64,000 nt of DNA from Escherichia coli (GTDB lineage Bacteria > Pseudomonadota > Gammaproteobacteria > Enterobacterales > Enterobacteriaceae). Location: NCBI RefSeq assembly GCF_030013595.1, contig NZ_CP122768.1; one strand, written 5' to 3'. Below are positions 58,628 to 60,989 of this stretch, piece after piece (within the stretch, counting starts at the first letter, position 1; each line of letters begins with the position of its first letter). Position numbers: made by a program.

Positions 58628-60989
58628 TCATCCTCTTTATCGACTCACGCGCTAAACCGGCGCGCCAGTGCGTAACTGCTGTAACAAACGCTCCACGGGA
58701 GCCGCCAGGCCAACTGACGGCGGTTGCGCTAAGTTATACCAGAGCGCATTGCCTTCATCCATGCAGCCGGTGAATGACGACACGGGAAGCCACATAGGCA
58801 CAATATCTAAGTGGAAATGGCTGAAGGTATGCCGAAACGCGGTCAGCTGCGTCAGGTTATCGGCAGAAATCTGTCGTTGCGCCAGCCACTGCCGCAAACT
58901 TTCTTCATCGGCAAACTGCGGGAAACAGTATAAACCGCCCCACAATCCGCTCGGCGGACGCTGCGCCAGCAATACTTCATCTTCGTGCTGTAACAGCAAA
59001 AAGTAGCCGGTGCGCTCTGGCAGCGTCTGTTTCGGTTTTTTGCCCGGATAAAGCGACCAGCTATTGTTGGCGGCGGCAATACATCCGTTTTGTAGCGGAC
59101 AGAGCGAACATTTCGGCTTAGAGCGCGTACAAATCATCGCGCCCAAATCCATCATCGCCTGATTAAACCGTTCCACGCCAACCGCGGGCGTCACCTGCTC
59201 GCTCAAACTCCACAGTTTATTCTCGACCTCTTTTTCCCAGGCCAGCCGCTTACAGCATAGCAGCGCGCCAGCACGCGTTTGACGTTACCGTCGAGAATCG
59301 GAAAGTGCTTACCCAGAGAAAGCGAGAGAATCGCGCCTGCGGTGGAACGCCCGACGCCCGGCAGTGCTGCAACTTCCTCAAAGGTTTCCGGGAATTTACC
59401 GCCGTGTAAGGTCGCCACTTGCTGTGCCGCTTTATGCAGATTGCGCGCGCGGGCGTAATAGCCAAGCCCGGTCCACAAGTGGAGAACTTCGTCGAGCGGC
59501 GCATTGGCGAGATCGGTCACCGTTGGGAAGCGCGCCATAAAGCGTTCAAAATAGGGGATAACGGTCGCAACCTGAGTTTGTTGCAACATCACTTCTGAGA
59601 GCCATACTTTGTAGGGCGTCTTGTCAATTTGCCAGGGCAGCGTTTTCCGCCCGTATTTATCGTACCAGTCCAGAACCTGGGCTGAAAATTGCGACGCTTG
59701 CATGGTCACCGAATTCACTGTTGTTGGGGGCAAGATTGCAGCACAGCGACGGCAGGGTGTAAACCGGAACTTTCCGCAGCCACGGCCTTATCATGCTTGC
59801 ATCCGGCAACTAACTTTGGATAATGCCCGTTTTCAGAACACTTTCACAAGCGACTAAATCTTTATGAAAAACGACGTCATCTCACCGGAATTTGATGAAA
59901 ACGGCCGCCCACTGCGCCGTATCCGTAGTTTTGTGCGCCGCCAGGGGCGACTGACCAAAGGCCAGGAACATGCGCTGGAAAACTACTGGCCGGTGATGGG
60001 CGTTGAGTTCAGCGAAGATATGCTGGATTTCCCTGCGCTTTTTGGCCGTGAAGCGCCGGTGACGCTTGAGATTGGTTTCGGCATGGGGGCGTCGCTGGTG
60101 GCAATGGCTAAAGATCGCCCCGAGCAGGACTTCCTCGGCATTGAAGTGCATTCACCGGGCGTTGGTGCGTGCCTGGCTTCTGCGCATGAAGAGGGCTTAA
60201 GCAACCTGCGCGTGATGTGTCACGATGCGGTTGAAGTGCTGCATAAAATGATTCCTGACAATTCATTGCGCATGGTGCAGCTCTTTTTCCCTGACCCGTG
60301 GCACAAAGCGCGCCATAATAAACGCCGTATCGTTCAGGTGCCGTTTGCCGAACTGGTAAAAAGCAAACTGCAACTGGGGGGCGTATTCCATATGGCGACC
60401 GACTGGGAACCTTATGCGGAACATATGCTTGAAGTGATGTCTTCTATTGACGGTTATAAAAACCTGTCAGAGAGCAATGATTACGTACCGCGTCCGGCAT
60501 CACGTCCGGTGACGAAATTTGAACAACGTGGTCATCGTCTTGGTCACGGAGTATGGGACTTAATGTTCGAGAGGGTGAAATAATGGCAAAGAACCGTAGC
60601 CGTCGTCTGCGTAAAAAAATGCACATCGACGAATTCCAGGAATTAGGATTTTCGGTGGCATGGCGATTCCCGGAAGGTACATCGGAAGAACAGATTGATA
60701 AAACCGTTGATGACTTTATTAACGAGGTTATCGAACCGAACAAACTGGCCTTTGACGGCAGCGGTTATCTGGCCTGGGAAGGTCTGATCTGCATGCAGGA
60801 AATCGGCAAATGCACCGAAGAACATCAGGCGATTGTGCGTAAGTGGCTGGAAGAGCGCAAACTGGGCGAGGTACGCACCAGCGAACTTTTCGACGTTTGG
60901 TGGGACTAAGAAAACATACGGGCGATGACAAATGCAAAACTGTCTGATGCGCTACGCTTATCAGGCTTGGAAAGATGCACAATCGAGTA

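Follow-up and report, generated by a model that had tools for sequence, protein, structure and literature searches.

A one-base contraction of an A6 run splits mutY in an Escherichia coli assembly: uncorrected homopolymer under-call or very young mutator allele

The described systems closest to the locus reported here are E. coli MutY itself, the A/G-specific adenine DNA glycosylase (PDB 1KG2, 1MUY and 1MUN; WP_001309725.1 in the complete genome VR50), and the laboratory strains that lack it. Such ΔmutY strains of E. coli are transversion-biased mutators (PMC10235995; PMC10995721), and the changes that accumulate in MutY-deficient cells are mostly C>A (G:C>T:A) (PMC10995721). The closest biological precedent for the length change described below comes from Helicobacter pylori, where, according to the account of Huang, Kang and Blaser (2006, J Bacteriol 188:6224) that is given in PMC8875331, a frameshift in a homonucleotide tract of mutY leads to loss of function and to a mutation rate that is ∼26-fold higher. 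Two further systems bear on how a lesion of this kind may be read: the ribosomal frameshifting that takes place on A_AAA_AAG in dnaX and in IS elements, and the consensus errors that arise at homopolymers and Dcm sites in long-read or flow-based assemblies. In nanopore data, errors in the consensus are concentrated at Dcm sites.

Against this background we analysed a stretch of 64,000 nucleotides (hereafter the window) from the E. coli contig NZ_CP122768.1 of assembly GCF_030013595.1, in which mutY occupies the same locus as in VR50 and differs from it in its DNA by one base. The window version is without one A of the A6 run at codons 157–158, and hence has no continuous frame (Table 1). In the alignment with the intact VR50 gene, GGG-AAAAAA-GAG is replaced by GGG-AAAAA-GAG, which is the sole difference over 142 alignment columns, and the codons for Lys157–Lys158 change from AAA AAA to AAA AAG-; a Dcm motif (TTTTTCCCAGG on the + strand) lies immediately beside the run. 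Among the best 24 full-gene matches, which comprise VR50 and 23 other complete genomes, identity to the window gene was 99.9 % and the one-base gap was the only difference. The halves on either side of the missing base were both 100 % identical to intact alleles, and because they match these alleles fully save for that base, the split of mutY is no chance feature. An earlier, sequence-only reading of this DNA had described a mutY gene halved by a frameshift at a homopolymer, and the VR50 alignment bears this out, with one A gone from A6. The limits and strand that it gave for the gene were exact, and it correctly placed the junction at a T5 run on the + strand; the position that it assigned to this run, 59211–59215, was wrong, as these bases read CACAG and lie 20 bases off the true run. 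It had also anticipated that a single additional base would repair the gene, and both the alignment and the repaired translation agree that one added A gives back a single 350-aa frame.

From the ORFs and their translations, the ATG of mutY lies at 59701–59703 and its stop codon at 58652–58654, on the minus strand. Read literally, translation would stop 8 codons past the run and yield a 166-aa fragment: the N-terminal frame proceeds from MQASQ to AVSGWPGKK, then reads RSRINCGV and ends at a TGA stop at 59203–59205, and the C-terminal part, which ends in LRTGAPV, sits in another frame. No continuous 350-codon frame is present in the window, and the gene is represented by ORFs of 166 and 184 aa in different frames. 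Two candidate restart codons could serve the C-terminal fragment, namely a TTG at 59204–59206 that overlaps the TGA stop (TTGA), and a GTG at 59192–59194 that is the start chosen by gene callers in public contigs, where it gives 180 aa.

Table 1. Coordinates of mutY, its lesion and associated features in the window
Feature	Position	Strand	Remark or basis
mutY locus (A/G-specific adenine DNA glycosylase)	58652–59703	-	1052 bp; intact alleles have 1053 bp
Lesion: T5 on the + strand, A5 on the coding strand	59231–59235		Six bases in all relatives
N-terminal fragment ORF, 166 aa: native residues 1–158, then RSRINCGV	59203–59703	-	Translation
C-terminal coding part, residues 159–350 and stop	58652–59230	-	Out of frame with the start; translation
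Candidate restart codons for the C-terminal fragment	59192–59206	-	ORF list; gene calls in public contigs
Second mutY A6 tract, Lys222–Lys223, GGC AAA AAA CCG	59036–59041	.	Homopolymer scan; intact, internal control site
yggX, oxidative damage protection protein	58349–58624	-	NF003817, 146 bits; VR50 annotation

When the missing base is restored, the predicted MutY has 350 aa, and its residues 1–225 match PDB 1KG2/1MUY at 224 of 225 positions (E = 1e-154), with S217 where the crystallised E. coli domain has A217. Judged from its sequence, the gene is E. coli mutY itself and not a relative. The N-terminal fragment keeps the HhH-GPD/HHH region, including the Asp138 motif ILDGN, and is identical to residues 1–158 of 1KG2; additionally, PF00730 and PF00633 match the identical 166-aa product in public contigs. 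The HhH-GPD domain that marks the MutY family is therefore present together with Asp138 and Glu37, both of which are reported to have catalytic roles (Guan et al., 1998). Alignment with 1KG2 places Cys192, Cys199, Cys202 and Cys208, the ligands of the [4Fe-4S] cluster, downstream of the frameshift and out of frame with the start, and the only match to PF14815, the NUDIX-like domain for 8-oxoG recognition, falls on a separate C-terminal ORF of 180 aa (public contigs). Thus, of the further family hallmarks, the Fe–S ligands are missing from the polypeptide that carries the catalytic domain, the C-terminal domain is not fused to that domain, and the single frame of ∼350 codons is interrupted. MutY reportedly depends on the Fe–S loop to bind DNA and on its C-terminal domain to recognise 8-oxoG (Guan et al., 1998; Porello et al., 1998; Noll et al., 1999). 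Because the Fe–S cluster loop and the C-terminal 8-oxoG-recognition domain are gone, the 166-aa product as written should be inactive, and the allele a null allele. The earlier prediction that a genuine frameshift would inactivate MutY accordingly stands as an expectation, in that a cut after residue 158 would remove the Fe–S cysteines and the C-terminal domain.

The surroundings of the gene are those expected of the family. Gene order in the window is nupG–mltC–yggX–mutY on the minus strand, divergent from trmB–yggL–yggN–ansB (ORFs; VR50 annotation), and the synteny mutY–yggX–mltC–nupG, divergent from trmB, is therefore kept. As mutY heads a mutY–yggX–mltC–nupG operon (PMC4421995), its premature stop could be polar on yggX.

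Siblings of the window were traced by lineage-specific proteins, i.e. truncated SpeC, truncated PglX, SslE and GspK. In the window, speC carries a TTG>TAG amber codon at 55513–55515 that leads to a 649-aa product, and the same 649-aa SpeC is found in five siblings: GCA_900448395.1, GCA_021887745.1, GCA_021646965.1, GCA_002968075.1 and run SRR10970594 (loci L012–L016). The island with the IS5-truncated pglX (BREX) also flanks the gene at the longer sibling loci, L012 and L013, and the pheV island is a further lineage marker that the window and the siblings have in common. Widespread proteins (GspE, BrxL and a RadC-like protein) were also tried as sibling probes and rejected, as they gave non-siblings with 88–98 % identity; for the Ag43-like protein of the window, the sibling search found no match on record. 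In all five siblings mutY is intact, with the extra T and a product of 350 aa. Base-by-base comparison over 8.7–20.4 kb showed, apart from the mutY base, between one and three substitutions that separate the siblings from the window.

The search was extended to complete genomes, where an 81-bp probe centred on A5 had no exact match in any of 5,413 complete RefSeq E. coli genomes, and an A5 probe for the second common allelic background had none in 5,420. The lineage of the window is itself absent from 5,426 complete RefSeq E. coli genomes, the best core identity being 99.1 %. The A5 deletion is private to this assembly. It is also very young, because mutY has no other change and none of three private substitutions is G:C>T:A; in this lineage, mutY was functional until very recently.

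In order to gauge the accuracy of the assembly, 51,030 bases of the window were compared with near-identical independent sequences, using L027 for positions 1–14800, L061/L063 (identical to the window throughout) for 14827–21246, and L012–L016 together with L029–L032 for 34191–64000. The intervening ∼13 kb (21247–34190) are without a true sibling, and an island copy from another locus (L054, 99.94 %) covers most of them. The checked bases contain 245 homopolymers of at least five bases, 75 of which have at least six, and only the mutY run differs; companion errors were found at 0 of the 244 other runs. Furthermore, the equivalents of sites that noisy assemblies miscall (59944, 60376, 60289 and 55422) are all correct in the window. 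Errors at homopolymers are no general feature of the assembly. Three substitutions are private to the window (11802 G>A, 49577 A>T and 60967 C>T), none of them G:C>T:A. Extrapolated from 3 per 44.6 kb, the whole genome would be expected to have about 300 private substitutions. The excess of G:C>T:A changes for which the sequence-only reading had proposed to look was thus not seen in the checked 51 kb, where three substitutions give little power.

The same contraction is found elsewhere in public data. The truncated 166-aa product occurs in identical form on 117 public contigs; other alleles with this frameshift give sister variants, found on 211 contigs and on 101, and in other Enterobacteriaceae the frameshifted product also exists in forms of 185 aa (variants P0003 and P0007). 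Approximately half of the 27 carrier loci examined have extra 1-bp indels within 5–8 kb, which split trmB, speC, mltC, ansB or yggL. Almost all of these lie in homopolymers and several adjoin CCWGG, and a number of sites recur across unrelated backgrounds, at the window equivalents of 59944 (CCAGGGG, in three assemblies), 60376 (a G6 run), 60289 and 55422/55423 (CCCCAGG). The noisy carriers cluster in the run series ERR10497xxx/ERR10498xxx and SRR308963xx–308965xx. To our knowledge, mutY mutators do not make indels, and for this reason we regard the extra indels of the carriers as platform errors. The mutY run itself (CCTGGG-AAAAAA) is a homopolymer that abuts a Dcm CCWGG site, which is the same type of context as that of the recurrent errors. 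The other half of the carriers, approximately, are clean over the 5–8.5 kb compared, and these belong to several backgrounds (L002, L003, L005, L008/L009, L011, L035, L037 and L041). Given this clean half, A5 probably does occur in nature as a real allele. When singleton substitutions in the public carriers were pooled, 9 of 104 were G:C>T:A, a count of low power since singletons mostly represent lineage divergence. Among the carriers examined, none combined the frameshift with the lineage markers of the window, and none had the speC amber codon. The public carrier L004/L044 is identical to the window over 2.8 kb, but it is not distinguishable from VR50-type backgrounds.

Several readings of the lesion leave the deletion in the DNA but give it a history or a remedy of its own. 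That mutY is an old pseudogene of the lineage, lost through reductive evolution as in Shigella-like genomes, would suit the other inactivated genes of the window (the speC amber, the IS5-truncated pglX and a shortened yeeP-like GTPase), but this is refuted by the intact gene in all five siblings, the window copy has no other change, and the reading is hardly conceivable. Recoding has a more specific attraction, in that the deletion creates AAA_AAG with A_AA.G, as in the A_AAA_AAG of dnaX and IS elements, and a −1 slip of the ribosome on G_AAA_AAG, with tRNA-Lys leaving AAG for AAA, would bring translation back into the native frame and yield exactly wild-type ...GKKEVENK..., either by leakiness or by dnaX-like programming. 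In E. coli no other tetramer shifts as readily as A_AA.G, which also belongs to the dnaX/IS heptamer (PMC4066793). Nevertheless, Sharma et al. (2014) found tetramers without a stimulator at background (0.147 % vs 0.112 %), and A_AA.G reached at most 5.6 % even with a strong pseudoknot (PMC4066793); background efficiency is thus to be expected where a downstream stimulator is lacking, and the 89 nt downstream of the window heptamer are predicted to fold no more stably than shuffled versions of them (MFE −22.5 kcal/mol; mean of the shuffles −23.1; z = 0.22). The heptamer is, moreover, non-canonical, with G and not A at position 1, so that it departs from X_XXZ_ZZN, and the frameshifted form is conserved in no relative, whether siblings or ∼5,420 complete genomes. 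Rescue of MutY by such a slip is extremely improbable, and frameshift rescue of the A5 allele can be taken as negligible. A phase-variable switch of mutator state, which the window would have caught in the 'off' position, finds its model in H. pylori mutY (Huang et al., 2006, as cited in PMC8875331), where, so far as that citing paper describes it, the length of an intragenic homonucleotide run likewise changes, and numerous allelic backgrounds, as well as other Enterobacteriaceae, have the same contraction. The E. coli tract is, however, just 6 bases long and shorter than the H. pylori run as described there; the 'off' state was seen in 0 of ∼5,420 complete genomes and all five siblings have A6, so that the tract proved not to be polymorphic among them; much of the recurrence tracks noisy projects, with other homopolymer indels; and the carriers are without a mutator footprint. 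The chance of such a switch in the window is very slim. That the mutY A6 run beside the Dcm site might be a true recurrent slippage hot spot, and with it a reversible transversion-mutator switch in natural E. coli, has a slim chance on the present analysis.

A mutator allele and a homopolymer sequencing error, the pair of explanations that the sequence-only reading had put forward, are still the only two that are viable. Common to them is that one A would have been lost from the Lys157–Lys158 A6 run of an otherwise normal E. coli mutY, and either way the finding is of a known kind, be it the loss of a known antimutator gene through a null allele or an assembly error at a homopolymer. We lean slightly towards an artefact because no relative has A5, no mutY-type footprint and no gene decay are seen, and the site is error-prone; that the missing A is an uncorrected homopolymer under-call in the consensus, and not a feature of the organism's DNA, has in our estimation about an even chance. 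The change is a single base pair confined to a homopolymer, it is missing from the siblings, there is no second observation of A5 within the lineage, and the same contraction appears on hundreds of public contigs, many of them visibly noisy. Like known consensus errors of this class, it is a 1-bp contraction beside CCWGG, but noisy assemblies have companion errors and the window has none in 51 kb, being otherwise clean with 1 of 245 runs differing and typical error sites correct. About half of the public carriers are also clean, the error is absent from complete genomes, long-read ones included, and three private substitutions have little power, a mutation just before isolation leaving no footprint. 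A real deletion, in which slippage during replication of the A6/T6 run would have produced a very young, strain-private mutY null and made the isolate or the sequenced stock a G:C>T:A mutator, is a serious possibility that we place somewhat short of an even chance. It would fit the 244 other runs that are intact in 51 kb, including sites that error-prone data miscall, and the identical contraction that clean public assemblies share on several backgrounds; truncation at residue 158 removes the Fe–S cysteines and the C-terminal domain, and E. coli mutY mutators are documented (PMC10235995; PMC10995721). An origin as recent as infection, storage or subculture, for example, would leave no footprint. 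Conversely, the deletion is absent from the five siblings and ∼5,420 complete genomes, and the C>A-dominated spectrum that laboratory ΔmutY strains lead one to expect, adenine removal opposite 8-oxoG being lost (PMC10235995; PMC10995721), is not visible in the window (0 of 3 private substitutions) and amounts to only 9 of 104 pooled singletons in public carriers. As mutY is free of secondary mutations, a real deletion could only date from a small final part of the private branch. Whichever explanation holds, the event is rare at this site, with 0 cases among ∼5,420 finished genomes.

If the deletion is real, the isolate would be a G:C>T:A mutator, which bears on the pace of resistance or adaptive mutation, and its phylogenetic branch length would be inflated; at the same time, it would provide a natural mutY-null with close intact relatives for comparison, and in this null a +1 slip at the A5 run would bring back exactly the wild-type gene. 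If the missing A is an artefact, the record wrongly presents a key repair gene as a pseudogene and needs correction. Screens for natural mutators that are based solely on assemblies will call this mutY site too often, given the hundreds of contigs concerned, many of which are noisy. With regard to the second A6 tract of the gene, an exact-protein look-up of contraction frequency was discarded as biased, because the long out-of-frame tail makes the product allele-specific; contraction of this tract was observed in one noisy public assembly (L034).

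Across unrelated E. coli backgrounds we repeatedly encountered the same 1-bp homopolymer indels (window-equivalent positions 55422, 59944, 60289 and 60376; public loci L034, L036, L038–L040, L046–L049, L007 and L010), and these also recurred inside the same run-accession series. Several of the sites adjoin Dcm CCWGG motifs. The recurrent indels are a signature of systematic platform error, which introduces false pseudogenes (trmB, speC and mutY) into public assemblies. Other mutY lesions were also found: an 11-bp insertion at window-equivalent 59247 in a metagenome scaffold (ERZ28634141, L043) lies upstream of an intact six-base run, leads to a 170-aa N-terminal fragment and is distinct from the A5 contraction carried by the window, whilst locus L042 has the A5 contraction together with a 3-bp deletion adjoining the run.

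The truncation of speC, by comparison, is real at the level of the lineage, because its amber codon is common to all sibling assemblies, unlike the mutY lesion. The codon is TAG in place of TTG, with A at window 55514, a position occupied by T in nine loci that belong to other lineages, and the product is 649 aa rather than the 711 aa specified without it. Downstream, alignments of the window to several other lineages stop within a variable intergenic stretch (Table), which also contains 60967 C>T, one of three window-private substitutions. The Logan contig L004/L044 connects to a fimbrial operon exactly at this stretch, and the link may be an assembly join through a repeat.

The SslE/T2SS-beta cluster (window 5200–21700) is a recombination mosaic. 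One sequence, L027, is near-identical to the window until ∼14.8 kb, and two others, L061/L063, show no differences from it over 14827–21246; beyond its own matching segment, each diverges by 2–3 %. Relative to common alleles, the DNA identity of the window SslE is only ∼89–90 %.

Window 27026–31154 is a CP4-like island, in which a long G run (∼30178–30187) separates the autotransporter gene from the GTPase ORF; the latter has one base fewer at window 30452 than its counterpart in L054, a copy of the island with 99.94 % identity, whose version is 290 aa. A degenerate BREX-1 island occupies 39322–47717 (minus strand), with none of brxC, brxB or brxA left past its IS5-family element, and the sibling islands are arranged identically. 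Finally, 48101–52360 is a pheV-type island junction, at which sibling L030 has an in-frame 12-bp deletion (window 48446–48457) in the Adr/OmpW-like gene.

Table. Annotated features of the window
Feature	Position	Strand	Remarks
Ag43-like autotransporter	27026–29947	−	CP4-like island
YeeP-like GTPase ORF	30441–31154		CP4-like island; 237 aa
brxL	39322–41406	−	Intact
pglZ	41417–44020	−	Intact; TIGR02687 match, 1260 bits
pglX	44191–46689	−	Shortened to 832 aa by IS5-family element
IS5-family transposase	46749–47717	−	Element interrupting pglX
Adr/OmpW-like beta-barrel protein	48101–48841		pheV-type junction
Phosphoethanolamine-transferase-like protein	49001–50500		Divergent; CptA match only 105 bits, far under cut-off
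P4-like integrase	50822–52087	−	pheV-type junction
tRNA-Phe(GAA)	52285–52360	−	pheV-type junction
speC (ornithine decarboxylase)	53566–55701	+	Amber stop at 55513–55515
REP-like intergenic stretch	60932–61036		Variable; between yggL and yggN
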